DNA of 64,000 nucleotides from a virus (Duplodnaviria > Heunggongvirae > Uroviricota > Caudoviricetes): IMG/VR virus record IMGVR_UViG_2703718774_000012, one strand, 5' to 3'. Position numbers and translations under genes: made by a program. The notes under the pieces are model-generated. The model searched no databases. It was not told where the DNA came from and was given only the letters and a program-made list of their open reading frames with translations. Below are positions 7,061-58,842 of the stretch, in pieces; position 1 is the stretch's first letter; every line of letters begins with the position of its first letter.

Positions 7061-7077
7061 AGATTTATTAGAGCAAT
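7061..7077 (-). promoter_or_regulatory. C1-repressor-type operator (minus strand reads ATTGCTCTAATAAATCT), overlapping candidate -35 TTGCTC / -10 TAAAAT promoter
   Basis: 16/17 match to recalled P1 C1 operator consensus ATTGCTCTAATAAATTT; overlaps stop codon of HAD gene. Confidence 0.5.
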
Positions 7078-9152: not shown

Positions 9153-9218
9153 ATTGCTCTAATAAAAAACGTGATGAGTGTACATCACGTTTTAAAAATA
9201 TGGAATTATTAGAGCAAT
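9153..9218. promoter_or_regulatory. pair of inverted C1-operator-like sites (9153-9169 fwd ATTGCTCTAATAAAAAA; 9202-9218 rev ATTGCTCTAATAATTCC) flanking a 28-bp palindrome
   Basis: Read directly; palindrome AAAACGTGATGagtgtacATCACGTTTT (9166-9193) followed by T-runs on both strands. Confidence 0.5.
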
Positions 9219-22447: not shown

Positions 22448-22534
22448 TGGTGGGGAGTGATGGAGTCGAACCACCCGAGTCGCAATGACAGTAGATTTAC
22501 AGTCTACCCCGCTACCCCTACGGACTAACTCCCC
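22448..22534 (-). tRNA. candidate class-II tRNA, Tyr-like (anticodon GUA), 87 nt
   Basis: Perfect 7-bp acceptor stem, anticodon stem-loop GTAGA-CTGTAAA-TCTAC, long variable arm GTCATTGCGACTCG resembling E. coli tRNA-Tyr, T-arm GGTGG-TTCGACT-CCATC, 3' ACCA; D-arm irregular. Confidence 0.45.
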
Positions 22535-22539
22535 TAAAG

Positions 22540-22614
22540 TGGCGATGGTGGGTGGATTCGAACTACCGACCAGTTGGTTAACAGCCAACTGCTCTACCGC
22601 TGAGCTACACCATC
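22540..22614 (-). tRNA. tRNA-Asn (anticodon GUU)
   Basis: 75-nt cloverleaf GATGGTGTAGCTCAGCGGTAGAGC-A-GTTGG-CTGTTAA-CCAAC...TTCGAAT...CACCATCGCCA on minus strand. Confidence 0.8.
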
Positions 22615-23267: not shown

Positions 23268-23296
23268 TATTACACTAATAAATTTATTAGAGCAAT
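23268..23296. promoter_or_regulatory. composite operator: perfect consensus site ATTGCTCTAATAAATTT (minus, 23280-23296) overlapped by inverted partial site; candidate promoter of tRNA-ban operon
   Basis: 17/17 match; TTGCTC -35, 17-bp spacer, TAATAT -10 on minus strand; overlaps the last codons of the methyltransferase gene. Confidence 0.6.
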
Positions 23297-27578: not shown

Positions 27579-27595
27579 ATATTTATTAGAGCAAT
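27579..27595 (-). promoter_or_regulatory. C1-type operator (minus strand reads ATTGCTCTAATAAATAT)
   Basis: 16/17 consensus match immediately upstream of the 27223-27507 / rdgC / dmt operon. Confidence 0.55.
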
Positions 27596-40153: not shown

Positions 40154-40309
40154 TTACCTTTCAGATTCGTAGGCTGTGAAGACAGTGACCTCCGTCTGGC
40201 CGGTTCGGATTCGTACCTCGCAGAGGTCTTTCCTCGTTACCAGTGCCGTCACAATGACGGTTAAACAGATGACGATCAGAGCGATTAACATCGCTTTTTG
40301 CTGCTTCAT
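40154..40309 (-). CDS. hok: Hok/Gef-family type I toxin (51 aa)
   Basis: Translation MKQQKAMLIALIVICLTVIVTALVTRKDLCEVRIRTGQTEVTVFTAYESER nearly collinear with recalled Gef/Hok; not in ORF track (short). Confidence 0.8.
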   Translation of the reverse strand: MKQQKAMLIALIVICLTVIVTALVTRKDLCEVRIRTGQTEVTVFTAYESER

Positions 40310-40367
40310 AGCCTGCTTCTCCTTGACCTTTTGGTCGGTAAGAGGCTAATCTACGTATGCTAAGCAT
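40161..40367 (-). CDS. mok: mok-like overlapping reading frame (modulator of killing)
   Basis: 68-aa ORF overlapping hok out of frame; GAGG RBS upstream of its ATG. Confidence 0.5.
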   Translation of the reverse strand: MLSIRRLASYRPKGQGEAGYEAAKSDVNRSDRHLFNRHCDGTGNEERPLRGTNPNRPDGGHCLHSLRI

Positions 40368-40420
40368 AGATGTGGCCTCAGATTAATGTTAAGCGTCTTG
40401 CAGGACGCGTAATGTTATCT
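40355..40420 (+). ncRNA. candidate Sok-like antisense RNA complementary to mok leader
   Basis: Plus-strand TTGACC (40323-40328) / GCTAAT promoter-like elements facing into the mok translation-initiation region; ends not defined. Confidence 0.3.
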
Positions 40421-40490
40421 GGGGCTTTCTTCTATCTGCTTTTCGGGTAATGCCTGAAGCAGATAGCCTCAAGCACCCGCAACGATTGTA

Positions 40491-40817
40491 TCAATGTCTG
40501 GCTTTTTTTCTATAGAAATCACCTGGAAGGGTGAATATCCACATCAGAAGAAATGTTGCAGCAAACATGATCCCTAATGGCCAGACCGCGCCAAAGAAAA
40601 TCCATACTAAGATCTCCTCTGCTTGTTCTTTGCGGTCGATATCGACAAGCATTTTTCGGCTGATCATGTATACACAGAAGCCAATACAAACATATCCTGC
40701 AAAAGCGATCGCTAACTGTAAAAAATCAGATTGCATCTCCGACCTCAAACTGAAAACGCCAGGTGACTCCAGATTAGAGCAATCTATCACCCTCTGAATC
40801 CTGCCGGTATACCCCAT
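40491..40817 (-). CDS. small membrane protein (start uncertain; possibly 40736)
   Basis: ORF track; 2 TM helices; upstream part overlaps repL-like stop. Confidence 0.4.
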   Translation of the reverse strand: MGYTGRIQRVIDCSNLESPGVFSLRSEMQSDFLQLAIAFAGYVCIGFCVYMISRKMLVDIDRKEQAEEILVWIFFGAVWPLGIMFAATFLLMWIFTLPGDFYRKKARH

Positions 40818-41632
40818 TGTTCGTTATCTTTATTTTTGGCTAAAACCGCATTAAGAGCTTCGTTTACCGTCATGCAATGCGGCAGATTATCGAAGTTTGA
40901 TACCCCGCCAATATCAGGAGAACGCTTGTTCTTCAGGTAAGCATATTTCCGCGCTGCCGCCTCTACTTTCTGCTTGAACTCATGTTTTTGAGCGCGTTTT
41001 TTGGATAACCGCAGATTGTCAGCCTTTGCTTTTGCCTCAGCGATCCATGAAGTCAATTTTTTGAGTTTGGTCGTTCCGGCAGCGCCGGAAACTGATCTTT
41101 TTGTTTTTTTAAATTGTGACTTCTTATTCTTTATTGCCACGTCATCCTGACAGGGGGAGGGGGTATCATTTTGACATGGGGGTGTGGATAAAAAATTAAA
41201 TAAAGCCAATGTCTTAGCGAGAACAGCTTTAACCTTGGTTGCCGCTGAAGAGATCTTTAATTTGCTTTCAATCAGCGCATTTTTTGCTTGTTGTGCGAAG
41301 GCCAAAAAGGATGGTGTAAACCGGTACAGGTTAGCGCGACGTTCACGGTGATCGCCGATAACAATCTCTACTGACAGGATTCCTTTGTTTACAGCTTCAC
41401 GGAATGCACGAACGACGGTTGATTGGCTATAACCAGTTTCTGCCGCGATCAGGCGGTGAGGCTTGTGAATGAAGTATTCACTGGTTGTTGCCGCGAGATT
41501 TGCACATTGCGACAGGATATGCCCGGCGCTACGGGATAGACCGGAGTGTGTTACAAAGCAGGCCAATTCATAGCCAGAAAAAGTAAAATCGCTCATCGTT
41601 ATACAGCTCAGGAAAGTGACTTTAGCCAGCAT
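40787..41632 (-). CDS. repL: RepL-like lytic-replicon protein
   Basis: 281 aa directly downstream of kilA; assignment by size and gene order. Confidence 0.5.
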   Translation of the reverse strand: MLAKVTFLSCITMSDFTFSGYELACFVTHSGLSRSAGHILSQCANLAATTSEYFIHKPHRLIAAETGYSQSTVVRAFREAVNKGILSVEIVIGDHRERRANLYRFTPSFLAFAQQAKNALIESKLKISSAATKVKAVLAKTLALFNFLSTPPCQNDTPSPCQDDVAIKNKKSQFKKTKRSVSGAAGTTKLKKLTSWIAEAKAKADNLRLSKKRAQKHEFKQKVEAAARKYAYLKNKRSPDIGGVSNFDNLPHCMTVNEALNAVLAKNKDNEQWGIPAGFRG

Positions 41633-41661: not shown

Positions 41662-42462
41662 TTAGCGCGCTGCCGCGACAGGTACCAGCACACCAGCATC
41701 AAGCAATCGCTTCATCAGCCACTGCTGACCTTTGCCGGTTATACGAGTCGTGAAAGAAATCCTGCTTCCATTGCTTGTATCGATCACGGTTTCTTTAAGG
41801 GTGAAATACCCACGGGATATGTATTCTTGTTTGGGGACGTTCCTGCGTTCACCGGTTGCGATCAGAATTCCGTTATCACGCAACCAGGTGAAGAGATAGT
41901 TTTGGCCCAGGCCGAGCACTTTGGCATAGTTGCCGATTAGAACCCCGCTGGCGGTAGCAACGCGTTCGGCGAATTCGACTTTAGGTGCATCCATCAGCAT
42001 TTTTTGCTCCAGCCGTTGCTTTTGCTCTGCCAGGTCGGCAGCCAAACGGAGAGCTTCTGGGAGGCTCTTCGGAATAGCAGGTTGTAATCTTCCAGCTCGA
42101 TAGTCGATAAATGTCTGGTTTACCTTCAGCCGAAACGCGGGAGAAATCCAACCAGCGTACTCCACTGCGAGCAATTCATGAGCAAAAGTGCCGCCGCCAC
42201 GGCCTTCGAACGAAACTATGCAATTCTGCATAGTTTCTTTTTCAAGCTCTTCGATGAGCTGTTTAGCTGACAGCGTTCTTAGCCATTGAGCTGGCGCTTT
42301 ATGGGCACCGAGTCCGCTCGCTCTGTGTAGAGCATTAAGGTTGTAACGGCCAGCGCGGTCGGTCGTAATTTCAACACCACAAATAACGGGCAGAGTGGTT
42401 GAAGGATCGACATTTTGATGAAGGTTTGATATATTCATATCCGCATTGAATGTTTGTTGCAT
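41662..42462 (-). CDS. kilA: KilA (KilA-N domain + KilA-C/antirepressor-C domain)
   Basis: KilA-N-like GRYNLNALHRASG; C-terminal region paralogous to C-terminus of ant (VLIGNYAKVLGL.. vs ILIGNFAKVVGL..). Confidence 0.65.
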   Translation of the reverse strand: MQQTFNADMNISNLHQNVDPSTTLPVICGVEITTDRAGRYNLNALHRASGLGAHKAPAQWLRTLSAKQLIEELEKETMQNCIVSFEGRGGGTFAHELLAVEYAGWISPAFRLKVNQTFIDYRAGRLQPAIPKSLPEALRLAADLAEQKQRLEQKMLMDAPKVEFAERVATASGVLIGNYAKVLGLGQNYLFTWLRDNGILIATGERRNVPKQEYISRGYFTLKETVIDTSNGSRISFTTRITGKGQQWLMKRLLDAGVLVPVAAAR

Positions 42463-42548: not shown

Positions 42549-42626
42549 TTTTTCTGACTCGATCCAGATCGGGTTGGTCGATCTGCTCAGAAACCTGCCA
42601 GTTTGCTGGCAGGTTTTTTTCTTTTG

Positions 42627-43670
42627 TTAACCTATTGCTACTGGTTTTAACAAACCAGCATCAAGTAGCTTGCGAGTTAACCACTGCTGGCCTTTACCCG
42701 TTAATTGGGGCGTCAGCCGTATCTGGTAGCCATCTTCATCATCCAGCACCACTTCTTTCACCGTGAAATATCCGGCGTTGATGTACTGTTGGCGCGGTAC
42801 GTTTTTGCGCGCACCAAAAGCCATGAGAATGCCGTTCTGGCGCAACCATGAGAAAAGGGCGTTTTGCTTAAGTCCAACGACCTTTGCAAAGTTCCCGATC
42901 AGGATTCCATTAGCCGCTGATACCCGGTCGGCAAAATCGACTTTAGGGGCTGCGGCCACCAGCTGTTGTTCCAACTGCATTTTCTGTTCTGCCAACTCGG
43001 CAGCCAGGCGTAGAGCTTCTGGTAATGTTTGGGGGATCGATGGGGTAGGGGAGTTTGCCTGCTGCAATTCTTCCAGTTTGTCGATCAGCGAACGGCGGAC
43101 GGCTTTTGATTCGCGTGCGGCGACTCGCAGGGCTTGTTTGTAGGTCATGGTTATGACAACCATAGGCGTACCGCCACCTGGCGGCACGGTTGCACTTTTT
43201 GTGTAACCGTCCTCACCTTCTAATTCGTCGAGTATTTTTTCGATGAATTTGTTGTTCCGAACCTCTGGTTCCCCACATAACTTACGCGCTTCATTGACCA
43301 TCTTTAACAGTGTCTGGCTGTCGATTGTGTCTCCAGTGTTGGAGATAACATTCACAGCTGGTGATGGCGTAGCTGAAGCAACAGGTGCTGTTTTTTCAAC
43401 ATTCAAATTATTACCGGTCATTCTGCGCGCCTCCTTTCTCATTTCTGCTGCCACTGTTGCGTAACGTAGACGTCCTTGTTCAATCAAATAATCCCTGATC
43501 TCGGCTATCAGTAGCCTGTTGATCACAGCCTTATCTGTTCGGGTATAAAAACGTCTGGTTATCATGAAATAGTTGGCAATTGCGCCGGGGATCTCCCGTG
43601 TCGGCATACAGGTTGTATGCAAAGCGATCGCTTCGGCTATTTCATTACGGGTGACGAGAGGTTTTTTCAT
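42627..43670 (-). CDS. ant: antirepressor Ant (347 aa)
   Basis: C-terminal antirepressor domain shared with KilA; translationally coupled to icd (ATGA overlap); downstream of c4-like RNA. Confidence 0.6.
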   Translation of the reverse strand: MKKPLVTRNEIAEAIALHTTCMPTREIPGAIANYFMITRRFYTRTDKAVINRLLIAEIRDYLIEQGRLRYATVAAEMRKEARRMTGNNLNVEKTAPVASATPSPAVNVISNTGDTIDSQTLLKMVNEARKLCGEPEVRNNKFIEKILDELEGEDGYTKSATVPPGGGTPMVVITMTYKQALRVAARESKAVRRSLIDKLEELQQANSPTPSIPQTLPEALRLAAELAEQKMQLEQQLVAAAPKVDFADRVSAANGILIGNFAKVVGLKQNALFSWLRQNGILMAFGARKNVPRQQYINAGYFTVKEVVLDDEDGYQIRLTPQLTGKGQQWLTRKLLDAGLLKPVAIG

Positions 43671-43888
43671 AAAACCCCCTGAACGTCGGCAGAGAAGGGG
43701 AGGTTCCAGTAACTAAGTGAATTGCGCGAGTTAGTTGAAAAACGGGCAGTGAAAATGCAGGGGCCATCAGGCAATTGAGAGCGTGCTTCGTCTTCTGTTG
43801 CTGCGATAACGAAGTGATAGTGGTGTTTTTTACAGGAATAGAAACGCCAGATGAATTCTTGGCGTGCGCAAGGATTGGCATTAACCAT
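43667..43888 (-). CDS. icd: Icd-like small protein overlapping ant start
   Basis: 73-aa ORF whose RBS/start region carries the c4 target repeats. Confidence 0.5.
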   Translation of the reverse strand: MVNANPCARQEFIWRFYSCKKHHYHFVIAATEDEARSQLPDGPCIFTARFSTNSRNSLSYWNLPFSADVQGVL

Positions 43889-43938
43889 AGTTACGGCCTC
43901 ACAATCAGGTTTAACAACCTGCTACCCGCTGTCAAACA

Positions 43939-44016
43939 GGTGGCAGGACGTGACAGGGTTGACAGACTGGCGATTGTGAAACCAGCAGGCCGAAGCCTCC
44001 CCATCACGCCCCACCA
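43939..44016 (-). ncRNA. c4: c4-like antisense repressor RNA of immI (~78 nt)
   Basis: Minus strand GGTGGGGCG...CACAATC...CTGTCAAC...CCTGCCACC: loops complementary to TTGACAG and GATTGTG repeats found upstream (~44085-44105) and at the icd RBS (~43895-43935); closing stem GGTGG/CCACC. Confidence 0.5.
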
Positions 44017-44202
44017 TAATTTGGGCGTAACGCGGTTTAACGGACACAAAAATACCGCAATATCGGAAATCTGCGGTTGTCCGCACAATCATTCAGGCTG
44101 TCAAACCTGGTCGCAGAATTTGCTACGACGGCGGAACTATAAGCCTGAACGATTAAAAGGTCAATATGATGCGAAAAGATAGCATTCGCGACTTAAAAAT
44201 AC

Positions 44203-44219
44203 AAATTTATTAGAGCATT
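44203..44219 (-). promoter_or_regulatory. C1-type operator (AATGCTCTAATAAATTT) with TTGACC-N17-TATAGT promoter for c4-icd-ant
   Basis: 16/17 consensus match; strong sigma70-like promoter immediately downstream on minus strand. Confidence 0.5.
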
Positions 44220-44315
44220 GCTTGTTTAATAAATGCACAATTGGATCTAATAACCTCTTTTTTTTAAAGGCGAAAATATGTACCCTAAATGAGTTATAAG
44301 GCAGGTGAGGTTATA

Positions 44316-44807
44316 ATGAGAAAACTATTACTACCGTTATTATTTATGGCTGGGACTGTTAATGCAGCATCAAGCGTGAAGGAGATTTGTACCGATTATA
44401 CGAAATACCTTGGGCACGTTTACGGCTTTGCTGTCAGTCAAGACGAATCCATGCGCAAGAAGTTACTGTCAGATATGAAACGTCTTAAACTTTCTGAAGC
44501 GATGGTGCAGCAAGAACTATATAAAGTCGCAACCAACGAAAATGCTAAATATCAATATTCTCGCCTATTAAATCCCGACGCAAACGAGATCAATCGAAGC
44601 ACTTTCGATTATATGGTAAAGGCATGCGAAACCGCTCCTGATTTTGCTATCCCTAGCTGGGGTGTGCTGGTGGCGAGCAATGCCGTTAATAAAGAAGATG
44701 TTGGAAGAAATGGCATTGACTCAATAAGAAATGCCCCAGGAATGCGCCATCAAAACGTACAGGGTACGCTTGAAGAACGAGCCAGGGGGCCGGGTGTAGC
44801 CCCATAA
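44316..44807 (+). CDS. secreted protein of unknown function (signal peptide)
   Basis: Start MRKLLLPLLFMAGTVNAAS with GGTGAGG RBS; AT-rich gene; C-terminus carries PGMR..VQGTLEERARG motif also present in the tape-measure protein. Confidence 0.45.
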   Translation: MRKLLLPLLFMAGTVNAASSVKEICTDYTKYLGHVYGFAVSQDESMRKKLLSDMKRLKLSEAMVQQELYKVATNENAKYQYSRLLNPDANEINRSTFDYMVKACETAPDFAIPSWGVLVASNAVNKEDVGRNGIDSIRNAPGMRHQNVQGTLEERARGPGVAP

Positions 44808-58264: not shown

Positions 58265-58842
58265 TGACATTCAGAATGAGTGAACAATCACGGACCATAA
58301 AAATTTATAATCTACTGGCTGGAACCAATGAGTTTATTGGTGAAGGTGATGCATACATTCCACCTCATACAGGTCTGCCTGCAAACAGTACCGATATTGC
58401 CCCGCCAGATATTCCGGCTGGCTTCGTGGCCGTTTTCAACAGTGATGAGGCATCGTGGAATCTCGTTGAAGACCATCGGGGAAAAACCGTCTATGACGTG
58501 GCTTCCGGCGACGCGTTATTTATTTCTGAACTTGGCCCATTACCGGAAAATGTCACCTGGTTATCCCCGGAAGGGGAGTTTCAGAAGTGGAACGGCACAG
58601 CCTGGGTGAAAGATGCAGAAGCAGAAAAACTGTTCCGGATCCGGAAGGCGGAAGAAACAAAAAACAGCCTGATGCAGATGGCCAGTGAGCATATTGCGCC
58701 ACTTCAGGATGCCGTAGATTTGGATATTGCGACGGAGGAAGAGGCATCGTTACTGACTGCATGGAAGACATATCGGGTATTGTTGAATCGTGTTGATACA
58801 ACAGTAGCATCGGATGTTGAGTGGCCAGTCGCCCCGCAATAA
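58264..58842 (+). CDS. tail fibre assembly chaperone (Tfa/U-like)
   Basis: 192 aa; start overlaps fibre stop (TAATG); pattern ...[15 protein letters not shown]...[19 protein letters not shown] typical of Tfa. Confidence 0.75.

Follow-up and report, generated by a model that had tools for sequence, protein, structure and literature searches.

A c4 antisense RNA combining a P1-type and a P7-type recognition loop in the predicted immI operon of a P1-family phage-plasmid

The c4 antisense RNA switch has long been known from phages P1 and P7, and the system that we describe here is not a new one. In P1, the 5' end of c4 is made by RNase P. Biere, Citron, and Schuster are said to have described, in 1992, a Rho-dependent polarity that follows icd repression; from that work and from work by Heinrich and coworkers in 1994, ant reportedly needs icd translation, an untranslated icd leading to premature termination of transcription. 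The heteroimmunity of P1 and P7 goes back to c4 RNA, which acts at the ribosome site of the ant mRNA and prevents its translation (PMC12197685, citing Citron & Schuster 1990). Silencing of ant needs both C1 and C4 (PMC8198154), with C1 repression and c4 together keeping the anti-repressor off (PMC8198154, PMC8546580). C4 is a substrate of RNase P (PMC5499578, citing Hartmann et al. 1995), the enzymology coming from P1 and P7 only.

Two other antisense systems of phages are similar in part. The CI RNA of satellite phage P4 is likewise a small RNA processed out of the leader of the operon under its control, and it pairs with repeated targets on the same transcript. It acts through transcription termination and is not known to occlude a ribosome site or to have its targets at an icd-type gene. 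The sequence of CI RNA is unrelated to that of c4, and it has no Rfam match in the window (by which we mean the whole 64,000-nt stretch of DNA that was analyzed); it too is a substrate of RNase P (PMC5499578). The sar RNA of the immI region of phage P22 resembles c4 in that it is an antisense RNA and keeps an anti-repressor from being made (PMC12197685). c4 differs from sar in lying upstream of its target on the same strand and in pairing through two short loops, and this is the arrangement found in the window, where c4 is on the strand of icd and ant, upstream of both, and is not a cis-antisense RNA of the sar type. The sar RNA comes from the strand opposite to its target, to which it is fully complementary.

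Identity and layout of the operon

We are highly confident that positions 42627 to 44219 (minus strand) hold the immI operon, with c4 antisense control of icd and ant, of a phage-plasmid of Escherichia coli that belongs to the P1 family. Over a 2-kb region around it, identity is 95.7% with P1 and, for the part in common, 97% with P7, and 24 kb of the window are 99.9% identical to pTX376-2, a P1-like plasmid of E. coli O157:H7 (NZ_CP038288). In an Rfam scan that covered the whole 64-kb window, the C4 antisense RNA model RF01695 matched over its full length (1 to 87 of 87) at 43936 to 44021 on the minus strand, scoring 68.4 bits against a gathering threshold of 45, and the c4-a1b1 model RF03163 matched at 44090 to 44142 on the same strand with 56.0 bits (gathering threshold, 46.7). 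When the immI annotation of P1 (NC_005856) was carried onto the window by alignment, every annotated P1 immI feature mapped base for base. The earlier note had proposed immI-type c4 antisense control from the letters of this DNA, and the proposal is borne out by both Rfam models above their gathering thresholds, by the identity to P1 and P7, by the mapping of the P1 features, and by the compensatory loop-target changes described below. It had neither named P1 nor noticed the mixture of a P1 a-loop with a P7 b-loop.

The wider window agrees with this assignment. It contains nine sites that resemble the C1 operator, against 0.33 expected, including Op51 of this operon and Op53 (42548 to 42532) in front of kilA-repL, as expected of a P1-type genome. 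The c4 module is single, as judged from the whole-window Rfam scan and from tblastn. No second c4/icd module was found by tblastn with Icd and Ant over the window, which returned the known genes and KilA only, and an Rfam search of 15500 to 16800 at a permissive E-value gave no match. The control region and the genes are laid out as follows.

44203 to 44219, minus strand: C1 repressor operator Op51 (Oc4), AATGCTCTAATAAATTT, identical to the annotated P1 operator
44176 to 44205, minus strand: predicted promoter P51a (P2c4), mapped from P1, with both hexamers as in P1 and a -35 hexamer that overlaps Op51 by 3 nt
44136 to 44164, minus strand: predicted promoter P51b (P1c4), TTGACC-17-TATAGT, with 10 of 12 consensus matches, the same as the annotated P1 promoter
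43667 to 43888, minus strand: icd, an open reading frame of 73 aa, 96% identical to P1 Icd; predicted cell-division inhibitor and directly repressed cistron
42627 to 43670, minus strand: ant1, an open reading frame of 347 aa, 93% identical to P1 Ant1 and 90% identical to P7 Ant1
43421, minus strand: predicted and conserved in-frame start of ant2 at codon 84 of ant1, preceded by GGAG and placed by its offset in the P1 annotation
42589 to 42618, no strand assigned: GC-rich hairpin after ant, AAACCTGCCAG/CTGGCAGGTTT, scored on the plus strand by the terminator scan

By sequence comparison, neither the promoter hexamers nor the operator differ from those annotated experimentally in P1. No other site in the region matches sigma-70 as well as P51b, which lies outside Op51. 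The earlier statement that an operator overlaps the promoter thus holds for the -35 hexamer of the upstream P51a and does not hold for the better-matching P51b downstream. At the other end of the operon, the ATG of ant1 overlaps the stop codon of icd as ATGA (43670 to 43667); the overlap of icd and ant had been noted before and is found in the coordinates of the reading frames. The hairpin at 42589 to 42618 is likely the terminator of the operon, although its T run is short on the minus strand.

Compared with the immI region of P1 (c4-icd-ant1/2; NC_005856, 48140 to 49731), all parts occur in the same order and with the same spacing; Op51, the hexamers of P51a and P51b, and the a sites are identical, and Ant1 has 347 aa and overlaps icd through the same ATGA. 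The differences from P1 include a stretch of about 20 residues within Ant and the divergent neighbor, a 172-aa gene like upf50.5 of P7 in place of simABC. The immI region of P7 (NC_050152, 50853 to 52448) has the same architecture, b sites, b' loop, and lipoprotein-like divergent neighbor, and it differs in one stem pair (G-U in the window, G-C in P7) and in the length of Ant1, which is 348 aa in P7. The remaining differences, three b sites from P1 and three a sites from P7, are the subject of the sections that follow.

The c4 RNA and its paired targets

The c4 gene lies between two pairs of target sites, one in the leader and one at the start of icd. Its elements, in the order of transcription, are the following.

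44090 to 44142, minus strand: c4-a1b1 leader motif (RF03163), two hairpins with a1 in the loop of the second
44098 to 44104, minus strand: target copy a1, TTGACAG, P1-type, covarying with a'
44083 to 44090, minus strand: target copy b1, GATTGTGC, P7-type, with GATTGTG at 44090 to 44084, covarying with b'
43939 to 44015, minus strand: c4 antisense RNA gene, 77 nt, placed by RF01695, by its fold, and by mapping of the P1 misc_RNA feature
43972 to 43978, minus strand: loop b', CACAATC, P7-type, within the 9-nt hairpin loop UUCACAAUC
43959 to 43965, minus strand: segment a', CTGTCAA, P1-type, in a 7-nt unpaired joint
43929 to 43935, minus strand: target a2, TTGACAG, 100% paired with a' across relatives, with two compensatory positions
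43897 to 43906, minus strand: target b2, GATTGTGA, fused to the Shine-Dalgarno sequence GAGG of icd; nine pairs with the b' loop, six compensatory and none broken; the P1 annotation, carried over by alignment, puts b2 at 43906 to 43899

The c4 sequence differs from that of P1 by 2 nt, both in loop b', the backbone being otherwise identical, and the sequence around both ends of c4 is identical to P1. Structure prediction of 43939 to 44016, a check that had been proposed beforehand, gave a minimum free energy of -42.4 kcal/mol (z = -4.7), and none of 200 shuffled sequences folded as well. The predicted fold leaves both recognition elements unpaired, with CACAAUC falling within the 9-nt loop of a hairpin and CUGUCAA within the joint. 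The complements that the earlier note had placed in the segment between the two copies of the motifs, closed by GGTGG and CCACC, are present on the minus strand; the match of a' is 7 nt long (CTGTCAA) where 8 had been given, and the small RNA, structured as supposed, has a predicted size of 77 nt (44015 to 43939) by homology to P1 instead of 78. Across 23 close relatives the internal stems of c4 are invariant and thus uninformative on covariation, so that the case for the fold is made by the folding energy and the Rfam model.

The same note had drawn attention to TTGACAG and GATTGTG as each occurring twice on the mRNA strand, and they do so, at 44104 to 44098 and 44090 to 44084 in the leader and at 43935 to 43929 and 43906 to 43900 at the ribosome-binding site of icd. 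The downstream GATTGTG runs directly into GAGG (43900 to 43897), 8 nt before the ATG of icd at 43888. Taken singly, both 7-mers occur in the window at chance frequency. The composite pattern TTGACAG-N5-30-GATTGTG has three matches in the 64 kb, all at this locus (two sense and one antisense, the latter in the closed segment), against an expectation of 0.02 and none in 100 shuffles. The significance therefore belongs to the arrangement and not to the words.

The pairing of c4 with its targets is conserved. Seven contiguous pairs can form with a2 and nine with b2, and in a covariation alignment of 23 distinct relatives the c4 loops and these targets are paired in 100% of cells. Compensatory changes occur at eight loop-target pairs and in 58 cells with no pair broken, a result that none of 500 shuffles reached, and control sites slid along the sequence pair in only 25 to 50%. 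The leader copies a1 and b1, which the P1 annotation labels "putative", are likewise 100% paired with the c4 loops and covary with them. Among the matches listed, the loops find an exact complement at every one of the four targets in 131 of the 133 loci whose flanks are complete.

Might the segment between the repeats encode a small protein repressor instead, with the repeats as its DNA- or RNA-binding sites? Open reading frames of 56 and 65 aa do overlap the c4 segment (43922 to 44092 and 43891 to 44088), and coding annotations persist in public records, including "c4: CDS" in X15639, "transcriptional regulator C4" in RCS47, and gp42 in JL22. Single-base insertions and deletions fall inside these frames among close relatives, however (GTTAAACC in the window, GT-AAACC in P1, and GTAAAACC in P7), and there is thus no conserved reading frame. 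Variation in the segment is confined to the loops and is mirrored in the targets by Watson-Crick complements, a pattern that marks RNA-RNA pairing, and the segment matches an Rfam structure model. On the frame-breaking changes and the Watson-Crick type of variation, we reject a protein-coding c4 and give it next to no credence. In 1990, Citron and Schuster reportedly found that frameshift and nonsense mutants of the reading frame that preserve the structure of P1 c4 RNA still give immunity. The c4 RNA is unannotated or annotated as a coding sequence in JL22, pTX376-2, and related plasmid records; the RefSeq record of pTX376-2, which is nearly identical to the window, has no c4 annotation.

A second alternative accepts the RNA and moves its main role into cis. 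Here a1 and b1, or the spacer between a2 and b2, would form pairs with c4 or among themselves within the primary transcript that direct its folding or processing, and repression in trans would be secondary. Such a role might account for a1 and b1 being as strictly complementary to the loops as a2 and b2 are, yet having no ribosome site to block. The minimum-free-energy structure of the 250-nt leader contains a 16-bp helix in which the a1 hairpin pairs with the a2-b2 spacer and encloses c4, and this helix is 96% pairable across relatives. It shows no compensatory change, however, and two local hairpins fit equally well. P1 c4 is trans-acting and complements in trans (PMC8546580, PMC12197685), and b2 overlaps the Shine-Dalgarno sequence in every allele among the aligned relatives. 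We consider a mainly cis-acting complementarity unlikely, and we retain trans-acting antisense control as the preferred reading of the locus.

A mosaic of P1 and P7 recognition sites

The departure from the textbook system is, in sequence terms, the combination of the P1 recognition loop a with the P7 loop b. The target sites of P1 are TTGACAG (a) and GTTAGTG (b), and those of P7 are TTAGCAG (a) and GATTGTG (b). The window has TTGACAG together with GATTGTG, coherently at a1, a', and a2 and at b1, b', and b2. Its sequence falls outside the P1 specificity class, in that a matches and b is GATTGTG (all three b sites read GATTGTG/CACAATC in the window and GTTAGTG/CACTAAC in P1), and also outside the P7 class, in that b matches and TTAGCAG is replaced by TTGACAG (all three a sites read TTGACAG/CTGTCAA in the window and TTAGCAG/CTGCTAA in P7). 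On the RNA the sites follow one another as a1, b1, b', a', a2, b2, an order from which a single crossover between P1 and P7 cannot yield the mosaic. The single-base differences in the flanking sequence are alternately P1-like and P7-like, in patches of 10 to 30 nt.

The allele is common. A first pattern scan of IMG/VR gave a set of 80 c4 genes (77 contigs plus P1, P7, and the window), comprising 35 of the P7 type, 18 of the P1 type, 13 of the type of the window (12 contigs and the window), and 14 of the reciprocal type, with targets coherent with the loops at every locus. At least 30 plasmids of PLSDB, from several hosts, have the 216-nt core with 100% identity, from which we take the allele to be common; 61 plasmids reach at least 99%, and phage JL22 (ON018986) is 99.5% identical. 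JL22, pTX376-2, and at least 30 other P1-like plasmids thus carry the same aP1/bP7 allele with a core that is 99.5 to 100% identical, and at least 14 other c4 genes, JL22 included, belong to the allele class of the window. A related region is present in 536 of 5,426 complete E. coli genomes (about 10%), and the matches number about 575 in PLSDB and about 550 in RefSeq.

Such a mixture could also be a decayed, non-functional recombinant in a defective plasmid prophage, and P1-like plasmids do often have damaged immI regions (PMC6906374). Decay does not, however, fit six sites that are all mutually coherent, nor the cognate loop-target duplex energy of about -17.5 kcal/mol, which is the value of every class, P1 and P7 included. 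icd, ant1, ant2, the promoters, and the operator are intact, and both the recurrence of the allele class in other c4 genes and the identity of the core in plasmids of several hosts, as counted above, argue against it. We consider decay very improbable and take the mosaic to be probably functional.

The set of alleles extends beyond P1 and P7. Additional b alleles are ACTTACG in D6, SJ46, and MH422554 and ACGAATG in 813R1 and 673R5. A wider scan, in which six loop positions were left free and the results were pooled with the other loci, gave at least 142 c4 genes with at least two a-alleles, at least seven b-alleles, and at least 12 combinations of the two. In the open-text literature that was searched, we found no description of more than two immI specificities.

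What the mosaic may mean for immunity depends on how much a single mismatched loop matters. With P1 sites at every a position and P7 sites at every b position, the immI specificity of the window is expected to be distinct from that of P1 or of P7, and perhaps from both. Between P1 and P7, the known heteroimmune pair, the duplex energy is -6.4 to -7.7 kcal/mol. The c4 RNA of the window gives -12.5 kcal/mol with the P1 target and -13.0 kcal/mol with the P7 target, and these values are intermediate, so that cross-immunity with P1 and P7 is not predictable from energy alone. Genomes with several modules offer another view of the question. Two to four c4 genes are present on each of nine IMG/VR contigs and on pTX376-2 (which has three c4-icd-ant modules, two more than the single one of the window), and on none of these do co-resident copies share both loops. 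Several of the co-resident pairs differ only in b, and one differs only in a. This fits, but does not prove, the idea that one mismatched loop insulates two co-resident modules. A broader proposal, which we put forward tentatively and rate as somewhat short of probable, is that the c4 loops are independent, freely reassorting recognition "digits" and that the window represents a distinct class, heteroimmune to both P1 and P7 if a single-loop mismatch abolishes repression.

Predicted mechanism and significance

With the sequence elements, the predicted fold of c4, and the conserved loop-target pairs shown here, and with expression, processing, and repression modeled on P1 and P7, the operon would work as follows. 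One transcript, starting both at P51a, which C1 would control by way of Op51, and at P51b, would contain a1/b1, c4, a2/b2, icd, and ant1/ant2 in that order. The 77-nt c4 RNA would be excised from this transcript and would act in trans, a' (CUGUCAA) pairing with a2 (UUGACAG) and the b' loop (UUCACAAUC) with b2 and the Shine-Dalgarno sequence (GAUUGUGAG). This pairing, by analogy with P1 and P7, would block translation of icd. As the start of ant1 lies within the stop of icd (ATGA), ant1 would depend on icd translation; repression of icd would then leave ant1 untranslated and the Ant1/Ant2 anti-repressor unmade, C1 would stay active, and lysogeny would be kept.

As a regulator, the locus is a correct rediscovery of a textbook system and adds little that is new. 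It is of some value for annotation, since the RefSeq and GenBank entries for many P1-like plasmids lack c4 or mislabel it as a protein. The point of interest is the possibility that the aP1/bP7 allele, together with the other loop combinations, defines extra immunity classes. Reassortment of a and b alleles with matched targets bears on which P1-like phage-plasmids coexist or superinfect, and many of these phage-plasmids carry resistance genes. If the loops are indeed reassorting digits, P1-like plasmids would carry a combinatorial RNA immunity code that reaches far beyond the pair of P1 and P7.

Loop alleles of c4 in P1-like elements

The c4 RNA has two short loops, and both vary among relatives. 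Comparison of window positions 43899-44104 with loci L003-L143 and phage records revealed, among the loci listed for P1-like elements, two a-alleles and at least seven b-alleles (CACTAAC, CACAATC, CGTAAGT, CATTCGT, CATGTAC, CACAAGT and CTTGAAC), which combine in at least 12 ways. The window carries the aP1/bP7 combination. At 131 of the 133 listed loci with complete flanks, the target sites a1, b1, a2 and b2 match their loops exactly. One of the two imperfect sets is that of phage vB_EcoM-673R5, where a 2-nt insertion breaks b1 (ACGGGAATG versus ACGAATG); b' and b2 remain matched despite the split site.

Some replicons carry more than one c4 module. Plasmid pTX376-2 (NZ_CP038288), which matches a portion of the window at 99.9% identity, encodes three C4 RNAs, each with an icd-ant pair downstream:
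L087:14455-14540, C4 RNA of pTX376-2
L088:36387-36472, C4 RNA of pTX376-2
L088:9371-9458, C4 RNA of pTX376-2

The second copy has loop a in common with the window allele but GTACATG at b, and the third is diverged, adjoining c1 and placed after an isrK match. IMG/VR contigs carry up to four c4 copies. On pTX376-2 and these contigs, no pair of co-resident copies has both loops in common.

Public records treat c4 in several ways. Among those examined (JL22, 813R1, RCS47 and X15639; spans inspected were L085:419-589 in JL22, L083:422-838 in 813R1 and 14408-14834 in pTX376-2), several enter it as protein, the labels being "hypothetical protein gp42", an Icd ORF lengthened to 417 nt, and "transcriptional regulator C4". 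RefSeq entries for P1-like plasmids have no c4 annotation.

Predicted fold of the leader

The minimum free energy structure of the 250-nt leader (43880-44129, minus strand) contains a predicted 16-bp long-range helix, in which the a1 hairpin (CAGGUUUGACAGCCUG) would pair with the a2-b2 spacer (CAGGUUGUUAAACCUG) and enclose c4. Across relatives, 96% of cells in this predicted helix are pairable and no compensatory changes in it were found; local hairpins fit equally well.

C1 operators and RNA family matches elsewhere in the window

A second C1 operator, Op53, precedes kilA and repL, as it does in P1:
42532-42548, minus strand, Op53 (TTTGCTCTAATAAATTT)
41662-42462, minus strand, kilA (266 aa)
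40787-41632, minus strand, repL (281 aa)

The C-terminal halves of KilA and Ant1 are 64% identical, and RefSeq labels repL on pTX376-2 a "MarR family transcriptional regulator." Further C1-operator-like sites lie at 23269-23296, 9153-9218, 7061-7077, 12817-12833 and 27579-27595, and among them are two bivalent operators, in which the paired sites overlap or are inverted. Counted together, the C1-operator-like sites of the 64-kb window number nine, versus 0.33 expected.

Other RNA features are as follows:
40304-40478, minus strand, Rfam sok antitoxin match (114.8 bits), directly downstream of repL
58607-58805, plus strand, Rfam IS009 match (192 bits)
20350-22614, minus strand, four tRNA genes spanning ~2.3 kb, three of them adjacent

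At the position equivalent to the sok match, pTX376-2 has an annotated hokD; reference P1 is not known to have a hok/sok module. The IS009 "sRNA" family probably matches coding sequence in the window, because the equivalent stretch of pTX376-2 lies within a tail fibre assembly protein gene. The tRNA genes are annotated on pTX376-2 as Ile, Thr, Tyr and Asn.

Divergence from P1 in Ant1 and the neighbouring gene

Ant1 differs from its P1 counterpart in one block (window 43150-43215, ant1 codons ~153-172), which reads EGEDGYTKSATVPPGGGTPMVV in the window against EGEFYTKSAKSHGTRAGRSFEV in P1, the rest of the sequence being ~97% identical. The block appears to reflect two frameshifts that compensate for each other. 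In P7 Ant1 it takes a third form.

The gene divergent from immI also resembles P1 only partially:
44289-44807, plus strand, gene for a 172-aa protein whose start resembles a signal peptide

Over the first ~45 residues this protein is the same as P1 SimA, whereas the remainder is unrelated to P1. At this position, P7 has a lipoprotein gene, upf50.5, equal in size to the window gene. Set against these two genes, P1 simA therefore looks like an N-terminal remnant, left after the sim genes replaced the remainder.
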